Below are positions 12,118 to 52,473 of a stretch of 52,473 bases of DNA, one piece after another. This DNA comes from Elsinoe ampelina. Lineage: Eukaryota. The stretch lies in assembly GCA_010093995.1 (NCBI GenBank), contig ML992510.1, positions 633,504-685,976 of the forward strand, written 5' to 3'. Position 1 is the stretch's first letter. Each line of letters starts with the position of its first letter. The notes below the pieces were generated by a model that had not been told where the DNA came from, ran no database searches, and saw only the letters and a list, made by a program, of their open reading frames with translations. Position numbers and translations under genes: made by a program.

Positions 12118-12311
12118 GTGACCTTTGATCCTTGCCAAGTTAGGTCTTTTTCCTTCGTCAGCTTCTTCAGCCACTTTCTACCGTGCGGATATACCATTTC
12201 AGGTCTGTGACCTAGACGTTCTTTATACCCATTGATTGGGAAGACATTCGTTCATTACCGACTTACATTCACTCTTTCAACCACATCTTCAAACGTCCAA
12301 CAACTACCAGC

Positions 12312-13481
12312 ATGTCTATTCTCGCCTACGCCGCTCTCCTGAGCGCAGCTGCGTCCACCGCGTACGGTCACGGTATGGTCCAGTATGTCAAGACTGGATC
12401 GGCGGAAAAGACATTGTCCTTCGACTTGTCCTTGACATACAACCTCGAAACCAACAGGGCTAAGCTTAACAGCCTTCCTGGCTGGTTGGAGTGGTCTCAA
12501 GACAACGGCTTCATCGCCCCTGACAGCAAGCCGTCTGGTGGTCAGTACGCCGGCATTGCCGACCCCCAGAACTTCGTCTGTGGTTCCAAGGCTGCTCCTG
12601 GTGGCGTCGACTTCCCTGTCGCTGCTGGTGGTAACTTGGACTTTATCTGGTCTACATGGCCCGACTCGCACATTGGCCCAGTCATCACTTACCTTGCCAA
12701 GTGCCCTGGCACCACATGCGCGGGTGTTGACAAGACCACCCTGAAGTTCTTCAAGATCGAGGAGGCTGGTCTGACTATGGATGGTACCACCCAGAACTGG
12801 GCCTCCAAGAAGGTCAACAGCGCCAACGGCTTCACTTGGACCACCCCTATCCCCAAGGAACTCCCTGATGGAGCCTACGTTGCCCGTCACGAAATCATCG
12901 CGCTCCACGGCGCTGGCTCGGCCAACGGTGCACAGCTGTACCCCAACTGCGTCAACCTCAAGATCAGCGGCGGTTCTGGTACCATGTCCACCGATGGTGT
13001 TGATGCCTCCACCATGTACTCTCCGACCGACCCTGGTCTCCTTGTTCCCAACATCTACGGAGGCATTACCAGCTACACGATCCCTGGTCCTCCCCTCAGG
13101 AGCGGCTCTGGCGGCTCCAGCCCAGCTCCTTCCTCGGCTTCATCCGCTGCTCCTTCATCCGCTGCTCCTTCCTCCGCCGCTCCATCAGCCTCATCCGCCG
13201 CTCCTCCAGCTTCGTCTGCTGCTCCAGTACCAACCACCACTGCTGCTCCAGCACCTTCCGGCCCTGTCGTCACTGCCACCTCAATCGCCACCACTGTCAT
13301 CCCTGTGACCACCACCGGTGGCGCTTCCCCCGCACCGACAGGCGGCTCCGGCTCTGGTGGTTCCACCAAGCCCCTCCCAGAGGGCACCACGCTTGCCGAC
13401 CTTCTCGCCTGGTTGAAGATCATCCTTAACAGGACCAGCCCAGCCAAGCGCTCCGAGTTCTTCAGCCATATGCTGATGTAA
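12312..13481 (+). CDS. AA9 (GH61) lytic polysaccharide monooxygenase, secreted
   Basis: Signal peptide MSILAYAALLSAAASTAYG then His1 (HGMVQ); WPDSHIGPVITYLA, FFKI, RHEIIALH, QLYPNC, YTIPGP; Ser/Ala/Pro/Thr linker; no CBM1. Confidence 0.95.
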   Translation: MSILAYAALLSAAASTAYGHGMVQYVKTGSAEKTLSFDLSLTYNLETNRAKLNSLPGWLEWSQDNGFIAPDSKPSGGQYAGIADPQNFVCGSKAAPGGVDFPVAAGGNLDFIWSTWPDSHIGPVITYLAKCPGTTCAGVDKTTLKFFKIEEAGLTMDGTTQNWASKKVNSANGFTWTTPIPKELPDGAYVARHEIIALHGAGSANGAQLYPNCVNLKISGGSGTMSTDGVDASTMYSPTDPGLLVPNIYGGITSYTIPGPPLRSGSGGSSPAPSSASSAAPSSAAPSSAAPSASSAAPPASSAAPVPTTTAAPAPSGPVVTATSIATTVIPVTTTGGASPAPTGGSGSGGSTKPLPEGTTLADLLAWLKIILNRTSPAKRSEFFSHMLM

Positions 13482-15147
13482 AGTACTGTTGAAGGAGAAG
13501 GGAAGGAAACGGACTTGATGATTCTAGCAAGGCGACAGGGGGATAACATTTTTGGCTTCTCTAGAGTGACCACTACCTGTACTGGTCACGGGGATCGTGG
13601 TTGATAAGGTTCTCCGCACTGTATTATTCTTGTATCTATCATGAATAGACCTTTTGGACCTCGAAAGAGGCATTATGACATGTCTGAACAGACCTTGCTC
13701 TTCTGATTGCTTACTATTGGGGCTTGCCATCGAGGCTAATTCAAGGGATACTTTATCACTCCGCAGGAGATCCGCAGGAGATCCGCAGATATGTGAACAT
13801 AATTGTAGCGACCGAGCTCACAGTCGTCTAGAAGCGAGCATCTACTTGAAACCGCTACGGCCGCCAGAACCACAAAGTGGACGGCACGGCATCCAAACCA
13901 CGATACTGTGGAGGTGATGTTTCGTATGAGGCAAACCTTGACTTCGGCGGAACTTCTAACCCTACTCGGGGGGGAGGGGCAATTGCGACCGAGATTTTCA
14001 CCGTTTGCACCTTCTGACCAAGTACTTTATACAAGCCTTGACTCCTGGCATTGGCTACGAACGTAAAATCCTTGAGTACATCACCTGCATCCTGCTAAAA
14101 CCTACAACTCGGCCGTCAACCTTGACAGATTAGTCACACCTTAGTCATCCCGCCTTTCCAATGATAATTCAACGGATCTACAAACCGTCAGTCCAGGCAC
14201 AAACGCCTGCTGTCTATTCGGGCCGATTCGAGTACAGGCTGGAATCTCACCGAAAAAGCTATTGAGGAGAATTCTTCAGCCCTGCGAAAGGACTCATCGC
14301 CGTGTTCCTGGAGTTCATACGTCACCGCACATTAGTACTGCTGTGGTTGAACGCGATGATGCTGGGTACTGGATGAAGGGAGATGCGGTTAAGTACCTCG
14401 GTCAACGATATGTCGTGCGAACTTCGGAAGACGGTGGAGGCATTGTTGGGAGTTGACGTGAGTGGCACTTGCTTCTTTCCTTACTTTGCAACGATAGCAA
14501 CACCCACGAACGACATGAAACAAAGCTTGACACATGCATTATCGCCAATTGGCGTCGCTTACATGGCATATCACGTCGATCCTGTCTCGATGTGAGAGAA
14601 AATAGCCATGGTCAGGAAGAGACGAGCAAATCGGCTTCTTTGCGATCAAACTTCTGGCAGTTGCGCAGTTGCGGCAATTTCGGGTTTTGAACCCGCTGAC
14701 TTGGCCCTGGCTGCTACCGCTGCAATGGGGCGCGCGAACTCCATCTTAGGCTTTAGCCGCCTTGCCGTCAACTCTACAAGCGTCCCTCAAACAATTGGGG
14801 TGACGGCTTTTGCCATTATCCAATCCTGCACCTCTGTCTTGTATCTGCTCACCATTCTAGACCACGTTTTCGCTCTCTCACCCCAATCCAGGGCCGTCTC
14901 CCATCGCATTTTGGCGACTTCACTCTCATTAACGCCGAGGCATCCATTGGTCATCTTCTGTCAACCGAGTCTGCCGGGCTTCCCACCCTCCTGTGTGGCG
15001 TCCTGTATAGCCATCACCTACACACTATTATACGTTCGACACACCTTGGCACTCCAGCGCACCTCTACTCTCAGAGATGTCACGATTTGAATGAATACAG
15101 ACCCTTTACCCGGCCGTCGCGACTCTAGCCATCCATCTTCACCCATC

Positions 15148-17152
15148 ATGCCCGACGCGTCCTCCGCTTCCTCATCTTCTTCCGCGCCTGCAAAGAGAGC
15201 ATGCGATGCATGTCATCGACGAAAGGTTAAATGCATCACTTCGAGCGCCGCGGACCACGCCAAACCATGCAAGAATTGTGCCGCGGCTGGACTCAGTTGC
15301 ACTTACAATTCCGTCCCGCAGAAGAAAGGCCCGAAAGGATCCAGAGCACGTGTCATCGGCGAGATTCGAGAGATCCAACGACAACAATCGCGGGGAAGGC
15401 GCTCACCGTTCGGGCCTGAGACTATACAGGTAGCATCGCCATACGCTCGAACACCTGGACTACTGACGCCGCAACTGATCAATTCTTGCGTCGAGTACTT
15501 CTTCCTCCACATATACCCCAGCCAGCCAATCTTGCACCGCCAAAAGCTGGCAGAAACCATCGCACAAATCGACAGCAGTGTTGAGGCATATTGCATGATA
15601 TCATCGCTATGTGCGCTCATGCTGATCCAGCCAAACATGGTGTTGCCAGTTGCCGCTCGTGCCGTGCCAGGCGCGGAAGCGTCGACGTTATCGACAGGCC
15701 ACATGCTGCTTCACGAAACCCTCCGAGTCAGGAGAGGCCACGACTACATCGAAGATCCCTCTGCACTTTCGGTCATGACATCTTTCTTCCTCTTTGCTAG
15801 CTACTTCTGCATTGACAAAAACAACACTGCATGGTTTCACCTCAGAGAGGCGACAACTCTAGCGTATGATATACATATGCATGAAGAGGACAGCTACGCC
15901 GGCCTAGATCCCGTGGAAGCATCAAGGCGACGGAGATTGTACTGGCTTTTATTTGTCACCGAAAGGTAACGATAGAAGTCCCATCTAATCGAGGTCCGCT
16001 GCTAATGTGCATCCAGAGCTTACGCTTTACAACGACACCGTCCACTCACACTGTACAGCACTATTCAGCTACCGTCGACAGACGAGGATCCGTCCGAGAC
16101 TGTGGAGCTAAGCGGCTTTTTGAATCTGGTTCATTTGTTCCGTCCATTCGATGATACCTTTGTCGGCTTCTGGAACAAGACCCGTGTAGGATGTAAAACG
16201 GACTGGCTAACCCAATTGCAAAATCAACTCTCCATCGCATTACCGGTGTACATCCAGAGCACGGAAACACAGGCTGTCGATCTAAAGGTCTCACAGACAT
16301 GGCTGAGGACGATGATATGGCAACTGTCCATCAGTCAAGGGTATCTGTCATCCCAGGCAGATGACAAATCAATGACCTTTGACTTCCCCATCGAACTATC
16401 GAGGGATCTGGTCACAGCTGCCAGTGGATTCTCGCAAATGGCAATGGAAGTGCATGGTATTGGTCTTGTAAGTCACCGGATATTTTCAAGATTGCCGCCA
16501 CCAGGAGCTGACATGACCGCGATAGATAGAAAAGCTGTTCGACGTAGCTTGCACTCTGACCGATGTCATGGGCTGCGTGCCGGAACAGCAACTTCTGCCT
16601 TCGTTTGAATTTGGCCCGCGGGATTACCTGCACCAATTTGTTTCTCTTATTTCTAACCTTCGTGGAGGAAGACAGAGATTTCTACCACTTCTGGTGTCCA
16701 AGATACATGATACACTGCCCTCATCCATGTCCAACATGGGCTACGCTATCAGTCCAAACCTTTCACGAGAAGCCTCCAGCTATCTGGGTACGCAACAGTC
16801 CTCCCGACAGGTTGAGGAGATCTATGATCGACGGGCACATGATACCCAGCCATCCGGTCGCACCAGTCATGTGGCATCTCCCTTTGGTAGCCCGTCACAG
16901 ACTGCAACATTGCCCATAGGCCCGCCGCTACTCGCTTTCGACAGCCTCGCCGTCGAAACAAGCTCAGTCAGCGGTCCGGGCTATGCTATCATCCCCACTG
17001 CGCCCATGGTGCCCATGAGCTATCCCATGTTAAGTACAGCTCATGCTGGATACCGCCAAGCTCCGCATCATCACATTAGCGCTGCAGAAGAGCAACCACG
17101 ACGGGCTTACGCCTATGTTCCACCTGGCGTGAAGTACGAGCGAACACATTGA
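15148..17152 (+). CDS. Zn(II)2Cys6 transcription factor, COL-26/BglR/ART1-like
   Basis: KRACDACHRRKVKC...CKNC...CTYNSVPQKKGPKGSRARV; fungal TF middle domain (RRRRLYWLLFVTERAY); introns 15966-16016 and 16468-16525. Alternative in-frame ATG at 15091. Confidence 0.88.
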
Positions 17153-18252
17153 TTCGGCGGTCTCCCTTCGGTCTTTGGAGTCTCCACAGAGGTACATGTT
17201 TGCACAGTATATTCGAACACGATCACGATGATATAACGACGGTGCTTTGGAAGGTACGAGCATGATAGAACGATTTTGTGTGGCTATCTCCAAGCAGATC
17301 ATTATCAGGGAGTTCAGACGGGAGAGGAATAATTTTTAGATACCCAAATCGCATCAAGTTCAATAACTGCGAAGACTACACCGTCCCTCTTCCTGTCGTG
17401 CATAAGATTTCCATAGTCTTTATCGTTGGCACAGAAGCGCAAAGTATCGCGACCAAGCGGACTACCGAGATTTTTAGGTTTGAGCAATGTCATTTCTGGT
17501 AGGATCTATAGTACAATTACCAGACCTTTTTAGTGTTTAAGCACGAATGACAAACTTTCAGATTTGCTAAATAAACCTGGTAGTATCTATATTAATGCCA
17601 GATACCAGAGCAATTCGGGCCTGATCGGCAAAGAGAAGCAGTTCGGCACTGCTGCCCATGCGGCCTGAACTCGGACAAGTTTCTTTGCTCGAGCGACCTT
17701 GATTCCTTCTCGCACTGTCCCACTGTGGCTGCACTTGTCCAGCACACATCCGGCTAGGGATGCATGCAGGGCACGTTGCGAGGCCTGAACTGAACGCAGG
17801 TACCGGCTTTACCGACCACCTCGAAGATGTTGACCACTGTCGCAGGACGACGTCTTCCTCCTTCTACAGTAGCTGGCATGGACGACCAGCAATTCAGAAG
17901 ACACCCGCCCTCCAAGACATCATTCTTGGATGACTCGCGAAGGTCGCTTGTGTCTTGACATTGCTGCCATGGCCAGGGGGTTTTCTGTGATTGGCAGCGC
18001 AGATTGACATGATCCGCGCTAATGGTCTGTCGGTCCCATGAGATGTCCGGATGGGCAAGCCACCACTAATTTGCTGCTCGTCTCAAGAACCACCATTTCA
18101 CCGGCTCTCGGATGCAAGACGAGATGTGTCGTCAGCTATAAGCGTAGGTCGTGACTTTCCCCAGTCGTTGTATCTTTTCGTTCTTGTCGAGCGATCTTGC
18201 AATTGCGCCGTCAAGCTGTAGTGTGTGCTGGAAAGGGTGCCCGCATGCAAAC

Positions 18253-20131
18253 ATGGGTGAGAACAACGTGCAAAGGCACACTGCAATGACAAGCTGACCC
18301 TTATCAGCGTTAAACACTCACTATACCATCTCGACATATGGTGCGCCAGAGCAGACGCTCGCGACCTGTAATGTTTATTTTACGCCCGCATACATCACAT
18401 GGACGACTGCACCGAGCACATTACCCGTTGTAGGTACTGCATACTTATATGTAGATCTCGACAAGAACACCACATCCACTTCAGTGACATGTACACCATC
18501 AATAGTCGAAGATATCAAGAGCAAGGGCGGCAATCTGGGCCAATGGATGGGAGCATCCATGGACGAGAATTGTACCCTCAGAGCTCCGTACTGGAATGCC
18601 AACATGCGGAATGATACCATTACCACAGCGTAAGCTTCTCAAAGGCAAAGTACAATGGAAGCTAATTACGGTCGGCAGGACATGGCCTGGACCAGTGACC
18701 TTGATGGATCTGGGAAATCGGATACGATTTTTCGGTAACAATGTCAAGAACTACCAGTCCTTTGTGACACTCCCATCCGGTATCCCGATCTACTACACCT
18801 ACTCGGACATCATTCAAGACGTTGGTATTACATCCTATCAGATCCCTGCAAAGAACGGCAGCTGGTACACTACGAAGCGAACGACATTCACAATGCCCGG
18901 ATTGAGCAAAATCTTTCCAGACGTACCCGATCTGAGTCAGAATTGCACGACCGTCTTCTTTGAAACGTCGCCCAACACCCTCACGCATGCCAACTTTCTC
19001 ACCCAAATCAGTACATTGCCAAGATCAGCTCCACAAGGTCAGGTGACGCCTCCGGTAGCAGCACCACAGATCCCGGCTCCCCGGCCACAGCCAGCGAATC
19101 CTCTACCTTCGCCGTCAATCATAGCCCCTGCGCCTGCACCCGCCGTTCCAACCAGTAGACCGAGCACAGGCCCAAGTACTGAAGACAGCAACCCCGACGC
19201 AGGCACCGGCACCGGCAACAACGCAGGTAACAGCCTCCCGCAGGCCGACAACCCCGCCGTCTCCACCGGCCCGGCCACCAACCCCAACCAACCTCACCCA
19301 CCACCACCAGCCAACATCCCCACCCCAGCGTCCCCCCTCACGACCCGCCCCGCCCTCATCCTCCCCAACTCCCAAACCCTCCTCCAAGGCAGCGGCCCCG
19401 CCACCGTGTCCGACCGCTTGATCTTCTTCGACAACTCCGGCACAGTCTACATCGCGCCGTCGCCGACGAACGGTGGCGTCCCGGACGCGGCCAAGGTGAC
19501 GGCTGTGCCGGTCGGGGAGGTGAGGATGCTGGGAGGGGTGGATGCTTTGGGGGTTTGGTTGGAGGTTACTGCTGGGGGAGTAGGGGTAGGAGGAGGGGGA
19601 GGGCAAGGGGGGGGTCAAGGGAACGAGGGTGGGAGTGGTGGGCTGCAGGGGGCAGGGTCTGGTGGTGCAAGCGCGGCGGGATCGGGATCGGGTGTGGGTG
19701 TGGAAACGGGCGGGAAGGGGGCGTCGTTGGCTGGGACGATCAGTCAGGCTTTGAGTAGTTTCAGTGTCTGGATTTTGAGCGGGCTGGGGGCGAGCGTGGC
19801 TGCGAATGGGTCGAGGGTGGGGAGTGCAGATAGTGGAGCGCAAGCAGCGGAGGAAGCGGGGAGTGGTTCCTCTGGGTCTACGAGCTCTGGAGGCGGGCTG
19901 CTGAGTGGTGGCTCTTCTGGGAGCAGTGAGGATGTATCGGCTAGGCAGTCAGGGTCGATGGGGAAGGTCTCAAGGACAACGTCCTTTGCAGCTGCATCTG
20001 GGACGCCGAGCGGCCCTGGTGGAGGAGGAGCTACGTCTGCGACATCACCGTCGACTGGCGGAGCAGGTAGTGTTGGTGCCGGATTATCACTGCTTGGACT
20101 CGTCGTTGGGATAGTGGCTTATGCATTATGA
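18253..20131 (+). CDS. Tandem family copy 1: uncharacterised 4-Cys-domain, mucin-stalk, GPI-like-tail protein (~592 aa)
   Basis: Exons 18253-18256, 18308-18629, 18679-20131 (frame-consistent). Motifs VGTAYLYVDLDKNTTSTSVTC, ATWPGP, MPGLSKIFPDVPDLSQNC, PALILPNSQTL, WILSGLGAS; hydrophobic tail. Confidence 0.8.
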
Positions 20132-20759
20132 GGTGGTATAGGATTAGGAATAATGTCTACGGTCACGTGCTCAAGATGATGGTACAACTCCGCTGTTTCT
20201 TCCGAAAGCTCCCATCTGCAACCTTCCGAGGACAACTGGGCCTCGAGCAGGACGCACTCGATGTGAAGTCTTGCTTCAGCAATGGCATCAGCGTTTTCAG
20301 TGTGGTATGGTGATTGCAACGACTCGTGCATCACGACAATGGCCAGCCACTGGTAGTACCTGGTCACGACTTATGGCGACCAGCAGACACCATCGTTCCG
20401 CGCGGCCCGTCACCACTCAAGATCAGCTTGAACGGAAGAGCCAACGTCGTGTGCAATGAGAGCGTAAGGCGATTGACTGTCAGGTCGTGCGCCCTCCCTT
20501 CTCACAAATAACCGCCGGATCGTGCCCGCCATGAAATACGCTAGGGGCACCGCTACCAAAGTAGGCTTTGACCACGCCACATTGGCAGCGCTCCATTTAG
20601 ATTACATCCTGCAAGGGAAATCACTAGCTTCCCGGCCTCAGCAAATGCTTGGAGGTGCTCCAATGACTTGTCATATCCCGCTCTGTAGCCGCTCAAGGTG
20701 GTTTTAGGTCGACTGGACTTGTCAATTCTAACCTCCGCAAACGATACATCTGACTGACC

Positions 20760-21837
20760 ATGGGTATGGCATCAAGAAGTGAAATTTGCACGAGATCTCG
20801 CTGACTGTGATTAGCGCTCGCATTGAACATGACAAGCCAGGTCCAGGCGTCACCTTCCGGACTTGCTCCTGTAACGTTGCGGATGGGAAGCTCAGTCACC
20901 AGGATCATCACTCCACGTCCATCGCCGACACAGTATGGACCCGTCACGCACTGTGTTGGCTTTATGAGCCCCGCTATAGTACTATGGACACCTGCACCCA
21001 CCGACATTCCTCCTGTGGGGACGACCTATCTCTACGTTGACCCGAATGTCAACACTACCTCAACCTCCGTGACTTGCACGCAATCTGTATATGACGAATA
21101 CAAGACAAAACTCCTGGGCGGCTTTGGCGCCTTCTATGGTGGCACGATGAACGAGCAGTGTGCTTTCCTTGCACCTTACTGGAATGGCGAGTATAGAGAT
21201 AAGGAGATCGAGATGGCGTAAGTTGCTGCCAATGGGTGTGATCAGATCCAACGAAGGCATACTGACGATGCAAAGAACGTACCCTGGCCCTTCGACCATG
21301 TTCGAGATCGGTTATCAGATCCAGTTCGAGTACTGGGGTCCTTCGTACGACGGCAAATGGGATTGGGAGACCATCATCGCCCCTGACGGACCTAGGTACT
21401 ACACCGGAGAGATTATCACTTCGACAGGGCTATCCGGACCAGGTATCCCATGGGCGACAATGTGGTCACTACCAAGCCTCTCCAAAATGTTCCCAGATGT
21501 GCCCGATCTGTCCTCTTGCACACTTATTCACTTCCGGACCACGCCCAACTCGTTGACCTTCGCGCGTTTCTTGACAGAGGCTATCACGCTACCAAAGTCC
21601 GCCGCGGGAAGTCTTACAATACCTTCTGCACCATCATCGACTGTGGATCCGGGCGTGCGTCCTACGGTGAACCAACCTTCGCGGTCTGGTACCGAGATGC
21701 AGCCAGCTCCAACGCCAGGTTCATCGGGCCTGGGACAGCAGCCACGACCGACTGCGACTGCATCAAGTCCAGGATCTGTGCCAAGTAGTGGTGATCATGA
21801 ACAGTCGAACACTGGCCCAGACTTGCCCTCTCGACCT

Positions 21838-21890
<53 letters not shown>

Positions 21891-22458
21891 AAGTCCTACA
21901 AGACCTGCCTTGGTCCTGCCAGGGGGACAAATTGTTCGCGCAGGCGCTGCCCCAGCGACTGTTTCCGGTCGACTCGTTTTTGTAGATAATCAAGGGACTG
22001 TACATATCGCCCCAACACCTGCGCCGGGCCAGAGGATAGAAGAGCCATACGCTCAAGCGACCGCCATTCCACTCGAGCAAGTTATTCGCGAAAGAGGCAT
22101 GCAAGCACTCGGCATCTGGATCCCGGCACAGGAAGCATCAATCGCAGACGACTCGCCCACACCCAGTAAGGAGGGGATGGCTTCTCATGATCTAACAGAC
22201 TCGCCACTCTCCCCAGCAGGACATCTCAGCAACTCCATCTCCAGTTTCGCCAGCTGGATCATAAGCGGGCTAGGAGCAAGCATCGACCGCACCTCAAGCG
22301 TCAAAAACAACAACGGTTCTTCCACGAGTCAATCCCCCGGGTCCAGCCGTAACAACAGCGTCGCGTCCTTCACAGGGGCAGGTGCAGCCACTCACCACCC
22401 GAGAAGAAAGTCAATGGCGCTCTTTCTAGCGTTTGCCGTGCCGTGGCTTTGTCTGTAG
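20760..22458 (+). CDS. Tandem family copy 2 (~529 aa), contains polyQ
   Basis: Exons 20760-20763, 20815-21217, 21276-22458. Motifs VGTTYLYVDPNVNTTSTSVTC, ATYPGP, LPSLSKMFPDVPDLSSC, PALVLPGGQ, WIISGLGAS, FTGAG plus hydrophobic tail. Confidence 0.82.
21838..21888 (+). repeat. (CAG)17 microsatellite encoding polyglutamine
   Basis: 17 perfect CAG units, in frame, in the stalk of copy 2. Confidence 0.97.
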
Positions 22459-23076
22459 TCTCCAGCTGGAAGAGTGATTGGGAAAAAGTCTGCGATAGTG
22501 TGCCCGCTCGTTGCAATCTTCCACAAGCGACCTCGACTCGTGCAGGTGTTTTGTTCCTGGTTGAGGCTGAGAAAGGGGCCAACATGATTGGTGGGTCTGC
22601 TCGGAGGACAGGTTTGGCGTGTCGCGATTTTCCGGCGGGCGCGAAACTCCAAATGGATCGTGAACGCAAGGTCCGGGACGGGATCCTTCTCTTCTCGACT
22701 TCGTTTCTGTGTCGAGAGAGCCATTGGATCTGTGCGATATCTGATGCTGGACGCGCATGCCAGGTCGCTTGGTGTCTATGTGTAGTGTGACGACCTTGTC
22801 TGCAGGATTATCAGGTACGCTATGCAGCAATGTCATGCGTGGTAGGCGCTACTGCAGGTTTGCATAGCCCTGGTTATGGTGCATTGCTACGCCGCATTGG
22901 CATACCGCCACAAAAATAAATGAGTCGTCTCAAGGTGGTCTAGTTGACCAGAGTCGTCGGCGCTTGCATCTTGACGACCCATCGCCAAATCTCGATAGCG
23001 ATAGACACCATGGTAGCCGATTGTAGTCAAAAGGTGTGTCTGATCTCGGTCATTTTTGAGACGGCACCCACTCGAC

Positions 23077-24785
23077 ATGTCTCTCAATCTTACCATTGGT
23101 GAATTGAAATGCCTATATATCATGTGATAGATACTGTTGGCTAATTATTATCGCAGGAGTGCCGGTGATACCCTCGAGCTTCTGGACCGGAGTCTTCCAA
23201 CCTCCGCAGACGGAGCCACCGTGGAAAGTCGACGCCGGTTGTAACATCATCTTGTGGCCTGCGTACATGAGATGGATAAACGCAGCCGATGTGCCGCCTC
23301 TCGGGACGACGTACTTATACGTGGACCCAGACTCGGAGTCGACCTCCACGTCTGTCACCTGCGACACGTCCTTGTTCATGGAGTACAAGACGAAGCTGTT
23401 CTCTCCAGGATTCTACGATACATATGGCACAATTGACGACAACTGTAGCATCACTCTACCTTATCGAGGTCGTGAGTGGACGGCTGTGAGGTCAACGAAT
23501 GCGTATGTCTGACCACCACGATAACACCAGCTGGCTGACGGAGCATAGCACATGGCCTGGACCAGAGTGGCTATTTGACGTTGGTGACGAGATAGCCTGG
23601 GAAGGAGCATGGGTGACAGGCTCATCTCTTGAGATGATTGAGCGCGGTACTTCGACTCTGCCTGCAGCACCACAATGGTACACATGGAATGATGTCTACT
23701 ATACTCGTGGCGTGGTGTCTGGTGTTGATAAGCTTGCTGGTGGCTACGTGATGCCAGGTCTCAGCAAGATGTATCCGGATCTGTCGATCTTGAGCTCTTG
23801 CACCCTGGTACAGTGGGCTACGAACCCGAACACTCTCAGATACGCACACTTTCTTACCGAGACACGGACTTCGCCACGGACAGCTTCTGGTCATCTGACT
23901 ACGCTTCCGATTCCAGAGTCGGTGCAGACAACAACTGTAGCCCCTGTTCCAGTGCCACAACCCACGCAGCCACATGCTTCCCCATCGCAAAGCCAGGCTC
24001 AAGTCGGGCCCGCACCATCTCCAACCAGCAGTCCCCGACCAGTGATCACACCAGCTCAGCCCGGACGACCCCTTGTTCCCACTGGCACCGCCTCGCCAGC
24101 TTCTTCCCGACCCTCCAACACTGGTAGCAACAACCTAGCCAAACAAGAAGCCAATGACCCAGCCAATCCCGTAGCCGCCAACGCCATCCCCAACGCTGCA
24201 CCTCCCCGCATCACATCCGCCCCCGCCCTCGTAGTCCCCGCCTCCAACGGCGCCCTCCAAACCCTCCGACCAGGTAGCTCCCCCGTCACCGTATCAGGCC
24301 ACATCATCTCCCTCGACACCTCCAGCGTGGCGCACGTTGTGTCGCCTAGTACGCAGCAAGGTCGCGCCCCGGAGACAGTAGCGATCAGCTTGGATGACAT
24401 CGCTCGGGTCGGAGCCATTCAGGTACAGGGGACGAGGATTGCAGCTTTTGGGATTATGACGTACGAAGAGGTGCAGGTTGACGGGACAGGGGAAGGTGGT
24501 GCGGGCTCGACGACTGGGGGTGCGCAAGGGAGCGGGGGAATCGGCACGGTTGCGGATCGAGTCGGGGGGAGGGTCTCGGGTATTGGGGCTTGGATCAGGA
24601 GTGGGTTGGGGATTGCGCGGGTTGGCGGAGGTGGAGGTGGTAGTGTAGGTGGTGCGGGCGCGAGAGGGAATAGCACGTCTGGAAGTGGTGCGATGGCGTT
24701 CACAGGGAAAGGAGGGAGGAGGCGGGTTGGGATGGTGTCGATAGCAATGATCGTTGCAGCGATCGGGTGGACATTCGCGAGGTAG
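23077..24785 (+). CDS. Tandem family copy 3 (~534 aa)
   Basis: Exons 23077-23098, 23157-23502, 23549-24785. Motifs LGTTYLYVDPDSESTSTSVTC, ATWPGP, MPGLSKMYPDLSILSSC, PALVVP, WIRSGLG, FTGKG plus hydrophobic tail. Confidence 0.82.
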
Positions 24786-25169
24786 ATGACATTAATCCTC
24801 TGCAGACTACTGTATAGTTTATAAGGTACATGTTGTAGGTCCTAGGATGTCGGAAGCATTTGAATCGATGACTTCGAGGTTACCCTAATGTTGGAACTTC
24901 CGCAGCATTACCGACCAATCGACTGACACTGTCGAATGCTCGACTCATGCGATTTGACGGATTCGCTGAGAAGCATCCAAAGTCGAATCGAAAAGTGGCA
25001 CGGTTAAGCTCTGCTACGCCGCCTTCACAAGACGCTATAATATATTCTCGTTTCGGACCTGACTAGCGTTCCAGCCGCAGCGCCTACCCGCATCAACCAA
25101 AATCATTCAAGAACAACACGACCGCCGACATGGCCGAAATCCCTCATCCCGTTTGTACATCGTCTCGCG

Positions 25170-26899
25170 ATGCGTAAGTCAATCCAGAGGAGACAAACGA
25201 CGCACATTTACTGACGACCATATCACAGCGACCCAAACCATAACCCGACCGATGTGGACCAACCTCAATGGTACCAGCATACAAGTCCCAAGCACAATCA
25301 CACTCGACCCATAACCAACCTACGGCCCCGTGAAAAGCTGCGACCTCTTCCTCAAACCACTGTGGAATCAGTGGACCACTGCCGCCGCGAATTTCTCCGC
25401 AGTCGGCACCACCTACCTCTACATCGACCCCAACGTGAACACGACCAGCACTTCAGTGACATGCACGCCTTCCGTCCTATCGCAGGTACCCGACCAGTAC
25501 GGACGACCATACGGCAACCGATTCCCAGTCACCATCGATGACGAATGCAACTTCTACGTCTCGGTCCTCGCTCCCGCCGGACGAGGAAACAGTCTGACAG
25601 CCATGTAAGTCCACCCCATCTCCCGCGTCACCCCAGTCAACGACTCACCAACCTCCCAGGTCCTACGATCAAGGGAAAACCCAGCTCGACATCGGCCCCG
25701 TCGTCACATTCCAGTACTACGGCGGCACCAGGACCGACATCGGAGGCTACGAAGCCTGGCGATGGTCGACCTGGTTCCCGGCCGGACCGCAACCGTACAC
25801 CGGCGTGGTGTCGCAGTCGACGAAACTCAAGCCGGACGGGTCGATAGACGAGACGTTCTGGCACATGCCCGATTTGAGTATCATGTACCCTGATATACCG
25901 GACCTTACGTCTTGCAAGGGTATCCATATGGAGACGACGCCGAATCAGCTTACTGCGGCGAGGTTCCTGACGGAGTATATCACGTTGCCCAAGGCGGTGG
26001 CGGGAGGTTTGACGGTGCCGCCTATGGGCCAGCCGAGTGCTGCGCCGGTGCCGAGACCGAATAATCCGGCGCCGACAGCGTCGAGTAGTCCGATCGGTGG
26101 ATCTGAAGCCGGGGCGTCTGTCAAAGAGCCCTCGGTCGGTCAAGGCTCTTCGCCGACGTCGAGTGGCGGGCAAGGGCAGCCTGCTGCGCCGGGCGGGTCG
26201 TCACCAGCAGATGGTGTAGTGGTCCCAGGACAGAACGGAGGCAGCAATACTGGTGGGAGTGGTGGTAGCAATGCTGGCGGAGCCAACAATGCTGACGGGG
26301 CAGGCAGACCAGCGTCAGGAGGCCCTTCGCCACCGAGAACGACAGTTCCAGCTCTGATCCTGCCCGACCGCCAGACATTGAGGGCAGGGGCTCCTGCTTC
26401 CACTGTCTCTGGGCACGTGATCTCACTGGGACAAGATGGACTCGTGCACGTTCGGCCTGCAGAAGAGGATAGCAGTACTCCAGGATCGCAAAGCCCGGAG
26501 GTGGTGTTGAGCCTCCCCCAGATTGCAGCCGCTGGTGGCATCGAGGTCGACGGCGTCAAGATTCCTGCTTTCGGTACAGTTGTAGTCGAGACGACTTCTG
26601 GTGAGCAGGTGTCTGTTGGTCAAAGTGGTAGTCCACAGTCTCCTGATGCAGGTGGGGAGATAGCACCAACACCTGGTTCGCGAGTCGGTCAGGCTATATC
26701 AGGTATAGGAGCCTGGGTCATGAGCGGACTCGGAGCGTCGGGATCGAAGAACACACAAACCAGTGGGCCCTCAGGCAACCCATCAAGTCGACCAGGATCG
26801 AACTCGACCATCGTGCCATTCACCGGCGCCGCGTCAAGACCAGTCGCAGCGCTGGCAGCGCTCGGCAGTGCCCTCTTCGTAGTCATATGTATACTATAA
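25170..26899 (+). pseudogene. Tandem family copy 4, interrupted by in-frame TAA at codon 30
   Basis: Exons 25170-25173, 25229-25604, 25660-26899. Motifs VGTTYLYIDPNVNTTSTSVTC, MPDLSIMYPDIPDLTSC, PALILPDRQTL, WVMSGLGAS, FTGAA tail. TAA at 25312-25314 lies in the homologous frame. Confidence 0.7.
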
Positions 26900-27915
26900 T
26901 CCAAAATGTCATCAAAGGAATGGATGGCTTCGGATATCGCTCCAAAGGATCACGAGACGTGACGGCCGAGGAAAGCAAAAAGACGGGGAGGAGTAGTGGA
27001 GACTTCATCTGCTTAGGGCATCCTATGAACCGTGTGCTGTGGGAAGTCCGGAGCCGAGGTCTGCTGGTCCTCACTGGAGGAGCTGGATGGTGGGGGTGGA
27101 TTTAGTCCGGATCGCGATGTGGGATGGGCCTGTCATCTGCTGCTAGCTCGTCGAGGCGCGAGGGGGGCGATGGGGCTTTGCGGCGTGTGTCATCGCGCAG
27201 GCTATTGAGGTGTCGGTATGACTGTATGGGATAGACCATACGATGTGGAAACTTTTGCTCGTCAAACTGAGCATTGACTGCTCATTCGAAATTGAAAACT
27301 GGTGCGACTGTGCCGTTGTGAAAAGATCAGCGTCAGATGACGCGGGATCCGTCAGTGCAAGCCCAGGGCAAGCCTCCGATTTTTAAGCTTGTCAGCCGCA
27401 GACGTAGGTACTCTAAGGCCCAGAGTGTGCCATGGTACACGGTACAGTACCTTGCGATGAAACTGGCTTGCTGCTGTATGTTCTCTGTGTGATTGACATG
27501 AGAGCTGCAGCAGCAGCGTTGACCCTGCGGAGGACTTTTTGCTTTTGCTTCTCAGATCGTGCAAATCATTGGCATACTCGTCCTGGTACAAGGGCAAGCT
27601 ATCGTAGATCTGACATGGAAAAAGGTGTGACAAGGATCCCATCCGTCCACGGCGGATAAACGCACGCCGAGTTGGTTCTCCGCACCATGACCATGCAGAT
27701 CATGACTGCGGGACCTCCTTTGGAGCTCCAGTAAGATGCGGAGTCTCTCGTTGGAGTCTCAGAGTCTTGTCGTGAGCACGGTGAGCACGGGAACGAGCTT
27801 GGCCCTTCATAAGCCCCCGTCTTGCACCCAGAAGCTTTTGCTTCGCATTCCTCAGCCTTTTCTTGACGAAGCTTGTCACGCCTGTTTACCCACCAGAAAC
27901 ACGCGACTGCCCACC

Positions 27916-30182
27916 ATGGCCGAGAAACACTCCCCAGACCTCGTCGACAAGGAGGAGATCGCACACGATAACAAAACCGACAAACAGTTCAATGATATCA
28001 GTCAGGCTGACACGGCCGCTCGTCGCCAGTCGGTCGCCGTGAACATTGTCGAGAACCCGTTGAAGGTACTGTATCGAGGCTAAGCTTCGCCATGCCCGCA
28101 CGCGGGGACAGCCACTGACATCGCTACCCAGCGCCTTTCCAAAGAGCAAGCTGTCGCCAATGCAGAAGAGTACTGTCGCGCACATGGCCTCGACGAACAT
28201 GTCGACCTTTTCGGACGTGCTGCGCTCGTTGCGCGCGAGCCAGATAATTTTGCTGCTTTGAGCACACTCAGCGAGGACGAGCAGACGGCCTTGGCTTATG
28301 AGCGAGACCACAAATGGCACGGCCCGACTATGCTTTGGTATTCCATCGGCCTCTGTGCCATTGGCGCTGCCACACAGGGTTGGGATCAGACTGGCTCCAA
28401 TGGTGCCAACCTGTCGTTTCCTCAGGAGTTTGGCATCCAGGACAACGATCTGCTCATTGGTATCATCAACGCCATCATCTTCTTGACCGCAGGATTGATG
28501 TGAGTATATTGAGCTCTTTAGAATCGCGTGTGCTAACGGCAGTGATACAGCGGCGCCTTCATCGTTGATCCTCTCAACCACTACTTCGGTCGCAGAGGCG
28601 AGATCTTCATCACTGCATGCTGCCTGACAGCTACCCCAATCGGCTCAGGGTTCGCCAAGTCGTGGCAAGGACTGTTCGCTGCTCGTTTCATTATGGGTAT
28701 CGGAATTGGCGCAAAGAATGCTACTGTGCCCATCTACTCTGCTGAGATGGCTCCTGCCCGCATTCGTGGTGCGCTCGTCATGTTCTGGCAGCTTTGGGTT
28801 GTCATTGGTACGTTTCGCCGCTCAACTTTTGGAAGATCTAGAATTGATCCCTCCAGGTATCTTCCTCGGCTTCTGCGCAAACGTTATCGTAAAGGACGTT
28901 CCACGCATCGCCTGGCGTCTGCAGCTCGGATCTGCTTTCATCCCGTCTTTCATCCTCGGTGTCGGCATCTTCTTCTGTCCAGAATCGCCACGTTGGCTCA
29001 TGAAGAAGGACAGGCATGCTGAGGCCTACAAGTCCATGGCTCGTCTGCGAGCACATCCCATCATCGCTGCGAGGGATTACTACTACTCGTATGTCATCTA
29101 CAAGGAGGAGTTGGCTCAGGCTCGCGGCGCGGGTTACTTCAGACGCTTGGCGGACTGCTTCTCCATCCCAAGGATCAGGCGTGCGAATTACGGAGCTTCG
29201 ACTGTCATGATCGCCCAGCAGATGTGCGGTATCAACAGTACGTCCTGGTCGACAGCTTTACCGGGAATGAGCAAAGGCTAACACCTCACAGTCATCTCCT
29301 TCTACAGTTCCAGTATCTTCGAACGAGCTGGATACAACACTGACGAAGCCTTGTTTGCATCGCTTGGATATGGTGCTGTTCAAGTCGTCTTTACCATTCC
29401 TACTCTCTTCCTTATCGACACCAAGGGTCGTAGAACTCTCACCTTGATCGTCAGTACACCAATCTGTTTGCATCTGCACGCGCTGACCAGTCGCAGACTT
29501 TCCCTCTGATGTGCATCTTCTTGCTGGCGGCTGGATTGTCGCTGCTCAAGGATACTGGTAGCCGTGCCGCACAGGTCGGACCAGTCGTACTTTTCATCTA
29601 TCTCTTCACAATCATGTATTCTCTGGGTGAAGGACCTGTCGCATTCCAGTACTCCGCTGAGGTCTTCCCTACCATCCAGCGTGAGCAGGGTATGGCCTGG
29701 GCTGTCTGCATCAACAACACCTTTGGTAAGCTTGTTTATGCTCTCAATCCTGCCGATTACTTACAATTCCTGTAGCTGGTATTCTATCCTTCACGTTCCC
29801 CCGCATGCAGAACGTCATGACACCGACTGGAGCCTGTAAGCACAAACCGTATGTCCTTGCAGACATACTGCTAACCCATCACAGTCGGCTTCTACGCCGG
29901 ACTCAACCTCATCGCATGGGGCATGATCTTCTGCTTCGTCCGAGAGACCAAGCAATTGACCCTTGAGGAGTTGGACCGTAAGTGGCTGTTACCTGCCAAA
30001 CCGATCATCTACTGACGTCATCCGCAGAGGTCTTCTCAGTCCCGACGAGCCAGTTCATCAACCATGAGCTCAAGGTCTGGCTCCCATACTTCATCAAGCG
30101 CCACATTCTCCGCAAGAATGTCGTCAAGCCACCTCCAATCATTGAGAAGGGAGAGAAGACGGATCCTTATGAGAGTCCTTAG
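27916..30182 (+). CDS. MFS sugar porter (sugar/polyol/inositol transporter family)
   Basis: About eight introns (first 28066-28131). QGWDQTGSNGANL, PIYSAEMAPARIRGALV, PESPRWL, QQMCGIN, YSAEVFP, ETKQLTLEELD. Confidence 0.92.
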
Positions 30183-50988: not shown

Positions 50989-51274
50989 TGCTGCTGGGAT
51001 GAGGGCCCGTTCAGAGGTTGCGAAGGATGCCTAGGTCGTCAAGATCTATAGCCTGGGCGAAACGCAGCCGGACGCCATGCTCGGGAAACGCTTGAGAAAA
51101 GGATGGCCGGAAGACAAGGAACTCCGCGATGAACAAAGGCAAAGTATGCAAGTCTCTGATCAAGAAAACAAAGGAAGCAGATGGATGAAGGCAAAACAGT
51201 GAAAAGATGCAAGTGGCGGAGCTTGCAGCGTAAGGTAACCATTATTTGGCCGCATCCCTGTCATAAGGCGCGTG

Positions 51275-51534
51275 TGTTGACTTGTGTAGGGGAGGAAAAA
51301 GGATTGATTACTGCCTGATCCACCAAACTGAGGTGGATTGTAACTACATAAATACTTAACCTAACAAACTAAAAGATAGCTAAATCAAAAGAACTCCTTA
51401 ATAGCAATAGATTAAGACAATAACTATTTAATTTGATTATAAATTAGTAGAGTAGTGGATAAGTATTTAGTTCTACTAGGGGATAAACTAAATTAGGGTC
51501 CTTCTTAGCGCTCTAGCTTATACCTTAGTTAATA
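51275..51534 (-). repeat. Putative 3' LTR (~260 bp) of the Copia element
   Basis: On the minus strand a purine tract AAAGGGGTG (~51543-51535) is followed by TATTAAC (RIPed TGTTGAC). The other end is TGTTGAC on the plus strand at 51275, giving the TG...CA terminal inverted repeat. Confidence 0.65.
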
Positions 51535-52473
51535 CACCCCTTTACTAAATAGCTATAAGGCTGTTATAGCTAGTTAGTAGACTACTAACTTAAGGGATAG
51601 CTATTATAAGAAGGTCTTATACCTTTTAGATAGTAATAACTTAGTTAATCTATTAGCTAAGGTGTCTACTAATAGTGTCTATATTACTAAGATAGGGCTA
51701 GATAGATCTCTAGCTAGATTAATCTCTTGTCTTAGCTAGTGATAATAGATATTAATATAATAAAGGCGTGTATTAAGCTTCTTAATTAGATTAGTAATAA
51801 GGCTAATTATTTGCTAATTGTTACACTAAATGCTAATATGCTTAAGGGGATAGATAGAGGCTATTAGCCTCCTCTACTACATAGCTTGCTTAGTAGTCTC
51901 TATAAGAGTAAGTAATTCCACTTCTATACTTAAGGTTATAACTATTAGCTACTTAGTAGCCTTCTAGTTAATTAAGCCTTAGAACATCTTAAATAGATAG
52001 CCTTAAAGGCTCTTCCTTAAAGGGTAACTACTAAAGCTAGTATCTAATAAGGCTTAGAAAATTAGAGGTAGTATTAAACTATTAAAGGTAAGAGCTATAT
52101 CTTTAGTTTTATAGAGATACTAAATTACTCTATTTGCTAGTCTCTAGTAAGTTAGTAATAGATTAGTTAAGTGCTTTAATAATCTAGAAGTAGTAAAGGC
52201 AATATTAGGCCTTATAATAACAGCTACAAAGTTAATAGATCTAACCTTCTACTAGTATAGGTAGATCTCTTATAGTAATACTTAGCCTTTATAAGGCTAG
52301 AGTATCTTAATTAGAAGTAGTATTAATATTGGCCTTATTAGCTCTATAATAAACTTACTATATATCTACTATATGTACTAGGCTTAACTAAGCTAGAGTC
52401 TCTTTATTAGTCTATCTCTTATAACTTAGATAGCTAGAAACTAGCTTAGATCTCTAAGTACCTTTATCTTATA
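51275..52473 (-). mobile_element. RIP-degenerated Ty1/Copia LTR retrotransposon (RT-RNaseH 3' part + 3' LTR; truncated by the window edge)
   Basis: Abrupt AT-rich, TpA-rich tract. Minus-strand relics: Y**KVRSINFVAVIIRPNIAF (de-RIP YQQKVGS..TRPDIAF, ~52195-52257), CNN*QII (CDNQQTI), TRLYYINIYYH*LRQE (TRLRHVDIHHHWLRQE, 51724-51771), ANRLTKLL (ADGLTK). Confidence 0.9.

Follow-up and report, generated by a model that had tools for sequence, protein, structure and literature searches.

In the textbook view both GPI anchoring and N-glycosylation require entry into the ER through an N-terminal signal, and the locus described here raises the question of how proteins that seem equipped for both could enter it without one. 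The locus consists of four tandem paralogues on the + strand at 18.2-26.9 kb of the window, i.e. of the 52,473-nucleotide stretch of contig ML992510.1 of the plant-pathogenic fungus Elsinoe ampelina that was analysed. Each copy encodes four conserved cysteines as well as N-x-S/T sequons and a GPI-like tail; these features had been pointed out in an earlier note on this DNA and are confirmed in the translations. The first introns of all four copies are in phase 1 with GT..AG borders, and CG opens exon 2 in copies 1, 2 and 4. In-frame stops are found 2-43 codons 5' of the ATG in each copy, with no intervening ATG in any of them. On re-reading of the sequence the coordinates given in the earlier note for all four first exons and introns were exact, and its N-terminal sequences (MALNTHYTIS, MALALNMTSQ, MSLNLTIGVP and MPTQTITRPM) read as given. 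Its observation of a GPI-like tail on a signal-less protein holds for copies 1-3 and not for all copies, since copy 4 has an in-frame TAA and retains intron 1. Copies 1-3 appear intact, and copy 4 is probably a transcribed pseudogene. The features are as follows.

18253-18256, + strand: copy 1, coding exon 1 (ATGG), read from the sequence and found in none of the listed RNA joints
18257-18307, + strand: copy 1, phase-1 intron 1 of 51 nt, bounded by GTGAGA and CAG and containing a branch-like CTGAC, likewise from the sequence
18308-20131, + strand: copy 1, exon 2 (18308-18629), intron 2 (18630-18678) and exon 3 (18679-20131, including TGA)
20051-20128, + strand: copy 1, GPI-like C-terminal signal, STGGAGSVGAG and then a 15-aa hydrophobic end; no [FY]TG motif
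20751-20753, + strand: in-frame TGA 2-3 codons 5' of the copy 2 ATG, in the sequence
20760-20763, + strand: copy 2, coding exon 1, ATGG, the final 4 nt of a longer 5' exon (RNA joint)
20764-20814, + strand: copy 2, intron 1, 51 nt, phase 1, GT..AG (RNA joint that skips 51 nt)
20815-22458, + strand: copy 2, exon 2 (20815-21217), intron 2 (21218-21275) and exon 3 (21276-22458, including TAG)
22375-22455, + strand: copy 2, GPI-like signal, SFTG followed by AG, spacer AATHHPRRKS, tail MALFLAFAVPWLCL
23077-23098, + strand: copy 3, coding exon 1, 22 nt, MSLNLTI plus G (RNA joint)
23099-23156, + strand: copy 3, intron 1, 58 nt, phase 1 (RNA joint 23098/23157 in X1, X2 and X4)
23157-24785, + strand: copy 3, exon 2 (23157-23502), intron 2 (23503-23548, RNA-confirmed) and exon 3 (23549-24785, including TAG)
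24705-24782, + strand: copy 3, GPI-like signal
25170-25228, + strand: copy 4, intron 1 (25174-25228, 55 nt, retained in RNA) after a putative microexon ATGC (25170-25173)
25229-26899, + strand: copy 4, exon 2 (25229-25604), intron 2 (25605-25659, spliced in X4) and exon 3 (25660-26899)
25312-25314, + strand: copy 4, codon 30, an in-frame TAA where copy 2 has a Ser codon in the alignment, in the sequence
26825-26896, + strand: copy 4, GPI-like signal

The RNA evidence consists of spliced contigs from four runs, X1-X4, and the joints cited are among those listed. For copy 2 (529 aa) the joint of intron 1, 20763/20815, is present in X1 (side 255) and X2 (side 119), that of intron 2, 21217/21276, is present in the same two runs, and over 255 nt or more before the donor the X1 contig is colinear with the genome. 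For copy 3 (534 aa) a loose end at 23156 in X3 reads the end of exon 1, which fits the splice of intron 1, and contig record 4 (21899-23097) is colinear with the genome over 1,199 nt upstream of the donor. The frame is closed upstream of both copies because of in-frame stops, at 20751 in copy 2, where the earlier note had placed a TGA, and at 23041 in copy 3, 11 codons before the ATG. In these two copies the ATG just before the phase-1 intron is the only possible translation start, and the RNA data show their signal-less start to be real and not a mistake of annotation. The RNA contigs were searched for a private signal-peptide exon upstream of each gene, the finding that the earlier note had said would speak against it, and none was seen for copies 2 and 3. 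A CAG run near 21.85 kb in copy 2 encodes about 18 Gln.

The start of copy 1 (592 aa) is preceded by an in-frame stop at 18145, with no ATG and 35 open in-frame codons between the two. Its microexon has no support among the listed RNA joints (the depth of the bin 17738-18271 is about 0 except in X1, where it is 5.9), and the case for it is the sequence itself together with the orthologue P0002 of E. fawcettii, whose N-terminus is MALTTHYTNSS. Record 2 of X1 covers 18679-19540 of this copy and carries 322 further letters, which we infer from their number to be exon 2, of the same length. In copy 4 none of the listed contigs, from any of the four runs, has intron 1 removed; they are colinear over 25024-25606 in X2 and X3, 25024-25604 in X4 and 25031-26926 in X1. 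The RNA contigs give no alternative letter at 25312-25314, the position of the TAA, which the earlier note did not mention. Automatic gene models miss the 4-nt start exon, and in the public model at this locus copies 3 and 4 are merged into one gene, with the start placed at an internal Met.

Searching with a profile brought up 49 relatives, and all those whose source was looked up are Dothideomycete. No Pfam family scored above its gathering cut-off in 8 exon translations of the window or in 16 relatives (PapC_C, with 14.7 bits, and DUF7713, with 15.8 bits, came closest below the threshold). The four copies are members of a family without a Pfam entry that was found here only in Dothideomycetes. 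From the N to the C terminus the protein begins with a polar leader that has an M-[A/S/T] start and, early on, an N-x-S/T sequon. Next come a confidently predicted domain of about 200 aa, which is beta-rich and holds the four conserved Cys, and a linker rich in Pro, Ser, Thr and Gly. At least one small beta module and a helix with Trp-x-x-x-Gly-Leu-Gly lead to the C-terminal part, in which an N-x-S/T sequon precedes the motif [FY]TG-x-[AGS]; 5-10 spacer residues separate this motif from a hydrophobic end 14-23 residues long. Relatives in eight other named species, which were independently annotated, have the same kind of N-terminal start, and so do relatives in other orders and in a separate E. 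fawcettii cluster. In composition the family (medians: D+E+K+R 11%, Lys 1.6%, S+T+P+G+A 54%) is like the adjacent secreted LPMO-like ORF (D+E+K+R 11.3%, S+T+P+G+A 56%); the values for the adjacent transcription-factor exons are 16-20% and 38-42%, respectively.

The hydrophobicity of the N-termini was expressed as the best Kyte-Doolittle 9-mer, a measure which is not a trained predictor, with two signal-peptide-bearing ORFs of the same window as controls. The claim that the N-termini have no hydrophobic signal core stands for copies 1, 2 and 4 (0.99, 1.11 and 1.08), and has to be softened for copy 3, which is borderline because its 1.88 compares with 2.13 and 2.24 for the controls. The C-terminal tails of the four copies reach 2.7-3.6. 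The N-termini of the relatives are of low hydrophobicity as well: the best 9-mer is below 2.0 in 31 of the 33 N-complete database members, most scoring about 1 and some 0.4 or less, and the two exceptions are over-extended gene models. By hydrophobicity an N-terminal signal peptide is absent family-wide. The leader is nevertheless a distinct region in 33/33 N-complete members, and it is rich in sequons: at least one precedes the first conserved Cys in 30 of 33 members (shuffle expectation 14.8, sd 2.7), and the leader sequons total 47 vs 18.1 expected (sd 3.6), a 2.6-fold enrichment. Neither value was reached in any of 2000 composition-preserving shuffles, a comparison that ignores the relatedness among homologues.

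The sole strongly hydrophobic segment of the copies is the extreme C-terminus, and in 36 of 37 C-complete members the hydrophobic run is itself the end of the protein. In most of them this uncharged run has 14-23 residues and is in many cases Gly- or Ala-rich. It sits within about 30 residues of the C-terminus, where a tail anchor would be, and is marginal for one in length and character. By our own motif rule, which is distinct from big-PI, NetGPI and other trained predictors, copies 2, 3 and 4 are among the 30 of 37 C-complete members in which [FY]TG-x-[AGS], its Gly 24-31 residues before the C-terminus, is followed by a spacer and the hydrophobic run. A sequon lies at most 14 residues upstream of the motif in 28 of these 30, in seven tripeptide forms (NGT, NST, NSS, NGS, NTT, NES and NNS). 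In other words, the conserved C-terminal ends fit a GPI attachment signal.

The best reading, which we hold tentatively and at somewhat less than even confidence, is that the proteins enter the ER without an N-terminal signal by way of a C-terminal GPI signal. Together with its main rival, tail-anchoring, it makes up one of the three alternatives put forward in the earlier note, which the family-wide data sharpen; either half of it may be true. The C-terminus would act as the attachment signal and the protein body would be lumenal or extracellular and N-glycosylated. The finished chain, largely disordered and still reduced, would reach the ER post-translationally through its C-terminal hydrophobic signal, delivered by GET- or SND-type targeting; it would be translocated without an N-terminal signal, and the tail would then be swapped for GPI. 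The N-terminal sequon lies close to the Met, so an uncleaved N-terminus would be implied. It is possible, though less likely than not, that we are dealing with a natural, conserved GPI-anchored family whose only topogenic element is the C-terminal signal and whose uncleaved N-terminus carries a glycan close behind the initiator Met. We know of no natural GPI protein shown to enter the ER without an N-terminal signal, and to our knowledge the sufficiency of the C-terminal GPI signal has so far been posed with engineered substrates only. Work in yeast and human cells suggests that this signal does a large share of the targeting, and the family would provide a natural test case for its sufficiency, with several divergent members to compare. 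According to PMC9520029, the hydrophobicity of the GPI attachment sequence selects between GET and SND entry, the GPI-targeting substrates all bore an N-terminal signal, and its authors speculate that ER entry hinges on the C-terminal sequence. Secretome pipelines filtered by SignalP discard a family of this kind, and it is therefore probably missing from the effector and surface-protein lists of Elsinoe, Fulvia, Cladosporium and Botryosphaeria. Against signal-less entry stands the predicted beta domain of about 200 aa, which would need to stay unfolded until import.

The main rival, less than likely in our judgement and yet a serious contender, is a tail-anchored membrane protein whose C-terminal run is a real transmembrane anchor (inserted e.g. 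by GET), with a cytosolic N-terminal body in which sequons, Cys and motif serve some other purpose. The residue after the initiator Met is A, S, T or G in 28 of the 33 N-complete members, which reportedly suits N-terminal acetylation, a modification typical of cytosolic proteins and disfavoured in ER signals. Basic residues stand directly before the tail (RRKS, GRRR, RRQR), where they speak against the preferred reading and agree with the positive-inside rule if the tail is an anchor and the body lies in the cytosol. The lack of a signal peptide in any family member and the single strongly hydrophobic segment at the extreme C-terminus point the same way; in PMC9520029 tail-anchored proteins are defined by a transmembrane domain next to the C-terminus and by GET entry. 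The enriched leader sequons argue, if indirectly, against this rival, as does the retention of the pre-motif sequon in 28/30 members in seven different forms, a selection not expected in the cytosol, and of the small residue two places past the Gly in 30/37. Moreover, the hydrophobic run of copy 2 has only 14 residues, one of them Pro, which is short for a bilayer-spanning helix, the four conserved Cys are without metal-site spacing, and the charge is very low, as in secreted proteins, which likewise tells only indirectly against a cytosolic body.

It is unlikely that the polar, Ser/Thr-rich leader, or the weakly hydrophobic stretch LTIGVPVIP within it in copy 3, serves as a non-canonical, uncleaved signal that drives post-translational, N-terminus-first import of the Sec62/63 type. 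The borderline value of copy 3 against the two signal peptides of the window and the presence of a distinct leader in every N-complete member would agree with such a role, and weakly hydrophobic signals use Sec62 according to PMC9520029. However, copies 1, 2 and 4 and most relatives score far lower, and the leaders, in which charged residues and prolines occur, have no hydrophobic core in common. We give equally little credence to a signal peptide hidden from both RNA and annotations, i.e. to an alternative promoter, an upstream exon used in other conditions or a non-AUG start. Rare isoforms drop out of contigs, three RNA joints lie outside those listed, and the 5' end of copy 1, with its open codons upstream, is barely covered by RNA; against this, the frame closes 2 and 11 codons upstream in copies 2 and 3, the contigs are colinear there, and the eight other species share the start type. 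Finally, the other two alternatives of the earlier note, a shared phase-1 leader exon spliced onto any copy and silent cassettes completed by recombination, draw on the phase compatibility of the four acceptors and can be given almost no weight: no leader exon came to light, copies 2 and 3 each splice to their acceptor from a local donor of their own, with colinear sequence and the stops at 20751 and 23041 upstream, copies 2-4 are transcribed in place, and relatives at other loci and in other genomes have the same N-termini.

Among known systems, the Pneumocystis MSG/UCS genes are similar in being tandem, surface-protein-like genes with bodies that lack a signal peptide. Donor copies of that type have no start of their own and are silent until joined to one expression site, whereas transcripts exist for copies 2, 3 and 4, those of 2 and 3 being spliced from the ATG exon of the copy itself, and orthologues with the same start occur in other species. 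The start-codon-proximal introns of Nielsen and Wernersson 2006 (PMC1626468) also fall inside the first two codons; the peak described there consists of phase-0 introns directly after the ATG in short, Lys-rich, often ribosomal and signal-less proteins, and an excess of phase-1 introns is placed at signal-peptide cleavage sites, while the introns here are in phase 1, one base past the ATG, in long, Lys-poor proteins. GET tail-anchored proteins, as described in PMC9520029, share the lack of a signal peptide and the single hydrophobic segment at the extreme C-terminus, which therefore acts only post-translationally; they differ from this family, which has [FY]TG-x-[AGS], enriched sequons, short Gly/Ala/Pro tails and a secreted-like composition.

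The general class of fungal GPI-anchored cell-surface and cell-wall glycoproteins resembles the family in its Cys-containing N-terminal domain followed by a Ser/Thr/Pro-rich stalk, in its sequons, in the C-terminal order of small-residue site, spacer and hydrophobic end, and in its tandem, fast-diverging and lineage-restricted genes. The C-terminal attachment signal of a GPI precursor is found here by the motif rule (copy 1 having STGGAG instead); the cleavable N-terminal signal peptide was not found by hydrophobicity in the window copies or in 31 of the 33 N-complete relatives. Prion protein lacking its N-terminal signal is said to have been imported in vitro via its C-terminal signal. A further parallel is the role of the GPI attachment sequence in ER targeting (CD59, prion protein, LY6K), where, according to PMC9520029, GET and SND factors recognise the C-terminal signal post-translationally and yeast Gas1-Get3 is cited as a case of GPI-signal targeting; the family described here has no N-terminal signal, and its C-terminal signal would therefore have to suffice.

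Four paralogous plus-strand genes occupy 18.2-26.9 kb of the window. The four modelled proteins match only these four places when compared with the window by tblastn, and the identity between copies is 28-51% per aligned piece. Each gene has three coding exons separated by introns of 46-58 nt with GT..AG ends throughout; intron 1 is in phase 1 in all four copies, and the position of intron 2 in the protein is identical. The reading frame is shut upstream of all four ATGs, and in each copy the interval from stop to start is free of ATG. The coordinates, N-termini and TGA at 20751 that the earlier note reported were exact when checked in the sequence. The gene models and the neighbouring genes are as follows.

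12216-13481, + strand: LPMO-like ORF; normal signal peptide, Ser/Pro-rich tail (upstream; named from its translation)
about 15091-17152, + strand: Zn2Cys6-type transcription factor, spliced (upstream; named from its translation)
18253-18256, 18308-18629, 18679-20131, + strand: copy 1, coding exons of the gene model; in-frame upstream stop at 18145, 35 codons before the ATG
20760-20763, 20815-21217, 21276-22458, + strand: copy 2, coding exons of the gene model; in-frame upstream stop at 20751, 2 codons before the ATG
23077-23098, 23157-23502, 23549-24785, + strand: copy 3, coding exons of the gene model; in-frame upstream stop at 23041, 11 codons before the ATG
25170-25173, 25229-25604, 25660-26899, + strand: copy 4, coding exons of the gene model; in-frame upstream stop at 25038, 43 codons before the ATG
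about 27886-30000: sugar-transporter-like gene (downstream; named from its translation)

The models were compared with contigs of four public sequencing runs (X1-X4) that carry the label 'RNA? (a guess)'. The contigs do hold RNA-derived sequence, since they skip GT..AG introns of the flanking genes, e.g. 15963/16015, 16467/16526 and 28499/28551; they are uninformative on transcript starts or levels. In copy 2, the joints of intron 1 (20763/20815, listed as 20762 to 20814, cut +1) and intron 2 (21217/21276) are both found in X1 and X2. In copy 3, the intron 1 joint (23098/23157, listed as 23097 to 23156, cut +1) is found in X1, X2 and X4, a loose contig end in X3 carries the last letters of exon 1, and the intron 2 joint (23502/23549) is common to all four runs. 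At least 255 letters of an X1 contig extend upstream of the copy 2 donor, and X1 record 4 is colinear with the genome at 21899-23097, i.e. upstream of the copy 3 donor and across the whole spacer between copies 2 and 3. Among the joints listed for X1-X4, none connects the acceptor of copy 2 or 3 to a distant exon. The two genes are thus transcribed and spliced at both first introns as had been proposed, and their translation can start only at the ATG preceding intron 1. In view of the joints, the colinear upstream contigs and the closed frames, the N-termini MALALNMTSQ (copy 2) and MSLNLTIGVP (copy 3) are as firm as the contigs allow. The linker of copy 2 contains an unbroken CAG run of about 18 Gln (window about 21843-21899); 21828-21898 was skipped as a repeat in contig mapping, and the contigs break at this run.

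The 5' end of copy 1 is scarcely covered (the depth bin 17738-18271 is 5.9 in X1 and about 0 in the other runs), and no spliced joint of its intron 1 is present among the joints listed for the X1-X4 contigs. Its microexon is based on the sequence and on the E. fawcettii orthologue P0002, which is 61% identical overall and has the annotated start MALTTHYTNSS. The 35 open in-frame codons before the copy 1 ATG (18148-18252) are without ATG and encode a mildly hydrophobic peptide that is usable only via a non-AUG start; copies 2 and 3 have no counterpart.

The earlier note had ascribed the microexon and phase-1 arrangement to all copies, and this fails at copy 4. TAA at 25312-25314 is codon 30 of the proposed model, and it aligns with a Ser codon of copy 2 within the homologous stretch P-S-P-T-Q-Y-G-P-V; no variant letter occurs there in the RNA contigs. 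The proposed intron 1 is retained in contigs of all four runs: X2 and X3 contigs are colinear across 25024-25606, an X1 contig across 25031-26926, and an X4 contig across 25024-25604, after which intron 2 is spliced to 25660. Splicing of intron 1 was not seen among the joints listed for X1-X4, and in the unspliced RNA each ATG ahead of the TAA opens just 14-21 codons. Because of the TAA, the retained intron and these short frames, copy 4 is most simply, and probably, a transcribed pseudogene, alongside which a rare spliced form with intron 1 removed may still exist. The contigs of three runs begin at 25024, a weak hint of a possible copy 4 transcript start.

The transcription-factor and sugar-transporter-like genes are covered by RNA contigs far more deeply than the four copies, and no functional link of the neighbours to the copies was found. 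A contig of X1 omits 73 nt at 14177-14251, and the CT..AC ends mark this gap as a minus-strand GT..AG intron. It adjoins plus-strand introns of the transcription-factor gene and may belong to an antisense or neighbouring transcript. The G+C content is 0.37 at 51001-52000, as against 0.50-0.65 in the rest of the window.

No Pfam family was above cut-off for eight window exon translations and 16 relatives, and a word-indexed protein search gave just two matches, both from E. fawcettii. A profile built from these two proteins and the window exon translations was searched against 1.84 billion representatives and found 49 proteins with an E-value no higher than 0.001, of which 31 had 1e-10 or lower. 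All sources checked (20 out of 49) are Dothideomycetes: Elsinoe fawcettii, E. batatas, E. ampelina, E. australis and Sphaceloma murrayae, and also Cladosporium fusiforme, Cryoendolithus antarcticus, Fulvia fulva and Botryosphaeria dothidea. The relatives looked up are labelled hypothetical or uncharacterised, except for one 'indoleamine 2,3-dioxygenase', a name that looks wrong. The ESM Atlas returned just unnamed Ascomycota clusters, under 0.9. In open full texts (supplements outside the search) we found neither a published account of a signal-less GPI family nor a paper with any of six accession strings of family members.

Several public models of the family appear to be misannotated. The E. 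ampelina protein P0003 (1024 aa) is identical to residues 45-533 of copy 3 and 39-539 of copy 4, so the public model of the locus (23209-26899) fuses the two copies; its start is an internal Met of copy 3, and one of its introns jumps over the copy 4 stop. The RNA contigs give no support to this model, and its stop-bridging intron is absent from them. P0001, the E. fawcettii orthologue of copy 2, is annotated as starting MWQGGLGSGISVPM; in the alignment these residues fall inside copy 2 and not at its beginning, and the 4-nt start exon was probably overlooked. The N-terminus is truncated or over-extended also in the relatives P0006, P0019, P0038 and P0044.

The N-termini were compared in the 33 of 46 database rows of the family alignment with a Met start and at least 20 residues to the first conserved Cys; the other rows, models with a truncated N-terminus, were excluded. 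A signal peptide is lacking across the family: the best 9-mer hydrophobicity is below 2.0 in 31 of the 33, and the other two, P0019 and P0044, come from over-extended models with the usual start internal. Two signal-peptide controls from the window, the LPMO-like ORF at 12.3 kb and a small minus-strand ORF at 31.9 kb, score 2.13 and 2.24; copies 1, 2 and 4 score 0.99-1.11. Copy 3 is borderline at 1.88 and may have a weak N-terminal signal. An internal signal was rejected both in the conserved segment after the first Cys, where several members have charged residues, and in the W-x-x-x-GLG helix, where there are charged residues too. N-myristoylation was rejected as applicable to a single member starting MG. 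Position 2 is Ser in 12, Ala in 11, Thr in 4 and Gly in 1 of the 33 relatives.

The leaders, i.e. the residues from Met up to the first conserved Cys, belong to the least conserved regions of the alignment. At least one N-x-[ST] sequon is present in 30 of 33, often in the first 20 residues. Shuffled leaders gave 14.8 proteins with a sequon (sd 2.7) versus 30 observed and 18.1 sequons (sd 3.6) versus 47; neither observed count was attained in 2000 shuffles, which ignore shared ancestry and so do not yield a probability. The Botryosphaeria relative P0058, fetched later, begins MCPGATANVTC and has the same pattern.

The C-termini were compared in 37 sequences with a hydrophobic end, the four window copies included. 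The motif [FY]TG-x-[AGS] is present in 30 out of 37, with its Gly 24-31 residues from the end, and 28 of these 30 have a sequon at most 14 residues upstream (NGT, NST, NSS, NGS, NTT, NES or NNS), i.e. the pattern is kept and the letters vary. Copy 1 and the six other sequences without the motif have small-residue sites of another kind, e.g. TGGAG or VTGAAS. In 36 of 37 the hydrophobic run itself is the end of the protein. In a GPI attachment signal, small residues occupy the cleavage site and the position two residues on; a short polar spacer follows, and then an end of moderate hydrophobicity. Judged by their sequence, the family C-termini look like such signals. We know of no need for these two small residues in a tail anchor. 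The hydrophobic run of copy 2, MALFLAFAVPWLCL, is short for a membrane helix. A CaaX box was rejected since the Cys is at -2 or -3.

The first structure prediction of P0001, from a 10-row alignment, had a mean pLDDT of 44 in the N-domain. With a 54-row alignment, AlphaFold2 gave pLDDT values of about 90 for residues 30-228, a predicted beta-rich domain with four conserved Cys and the motif D-P-N-x-N-T-T-S-T-S-V-x-C, and for residues 318-397, a predicted small beta module; the linker and the region ahead of the tail are predicted to be disordered. Foldseek found no match to the P0001 model in the PDB (best E 0.15). A wide VIA-align search gave a best Z of 5.2 for the first model and stayed below 5 for the second; the rows listed cover just the small module (316-406) and not the large N-domain, and FHA-like rows on this module have Z 4-5, a range common by chance according to the tool. 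The module, with a core like G-x-T-L-x-A-G-G-x-A-x-T-I-S-G, is single in the window copies and repeated four or more times in the distant members P0031, P0039, P0047, P0048 and P0058 (Cladosporium, Cryoendolithus, Botryosphaeria). The composition of the family is secreted-like: the medians of 31 full-length members are 11% D+E+K+R, 1.6% Lys and 54% S+T+P+G+A, the LPMO-like ORF has 11.3% D+E+K+R and 56% S+T+P+G+A, and the transcription-factor exons have 16-20% and 38-42%.

Sequon enrichment, the motif at the cleavage site, the pattern of Cys residues and the composition lead us to infer a protein that would be lumenal, N-glycosylated and GPI-processed. If it is lumenal, its entry into the ER must be post-translational, because the sole hydrophobic element leaves the ribosome last; entry would then proceed via this C-terminal element. 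Such signal-less import is our tentative first choice. One may speculate that a mostly disordered chain with one large domain, perhaps needing disulfides to fold, would be a suitable import substrate. Prion protein without its signal was reportedly imported in vitro through its C-terminal signal. According to PMC9520029, whether entry in human cells is by GET or by SND depends on how hydrophobic the GPI attachment sequence is, and its authors speculate that this sequence, and not the N-terminal one, starts ER targeting. The substrates studied there all had an N-terminal signal too, which speaks against import without one.

That the protein is cytosolic and tail-anchored, which the earlier note had grouped with signal-less entry, is a serious if rather unlikely alternative: the basic residues ahead of the tail and the A/S/T/G at position 2 fit a cytosolic body, but the small residues at or near the cleavage site are not known to be needed by such a protein. 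An odd N-terminal signal, to which the borderline value of copy 3 would lend itself, is improbable. We also give little chance to a hidden signal exon, against which stand the colinear contigs upstream and the closed frames of copies 2 and 3. The shared leader exon and the silent cassettes of the earlier note are, taken together, extremely improbable.

In comparison with fungal GPI-anchored surface glycoproteins, the family resembles the class in its C-terminal half and would work alike, but is without the first defining feature of the class. It fits the positional definition of tail-anchored proteins, yet has features of which such a protein has no need. As described in PMC1626468, phase-0 introns peak right after the ATG, and a phase-1 excess sits at signal-peptide cleavage sites; the intron placement in the copies differs from both. 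Only if signal-less import were shown would the family be more than a variant of a known protein class.
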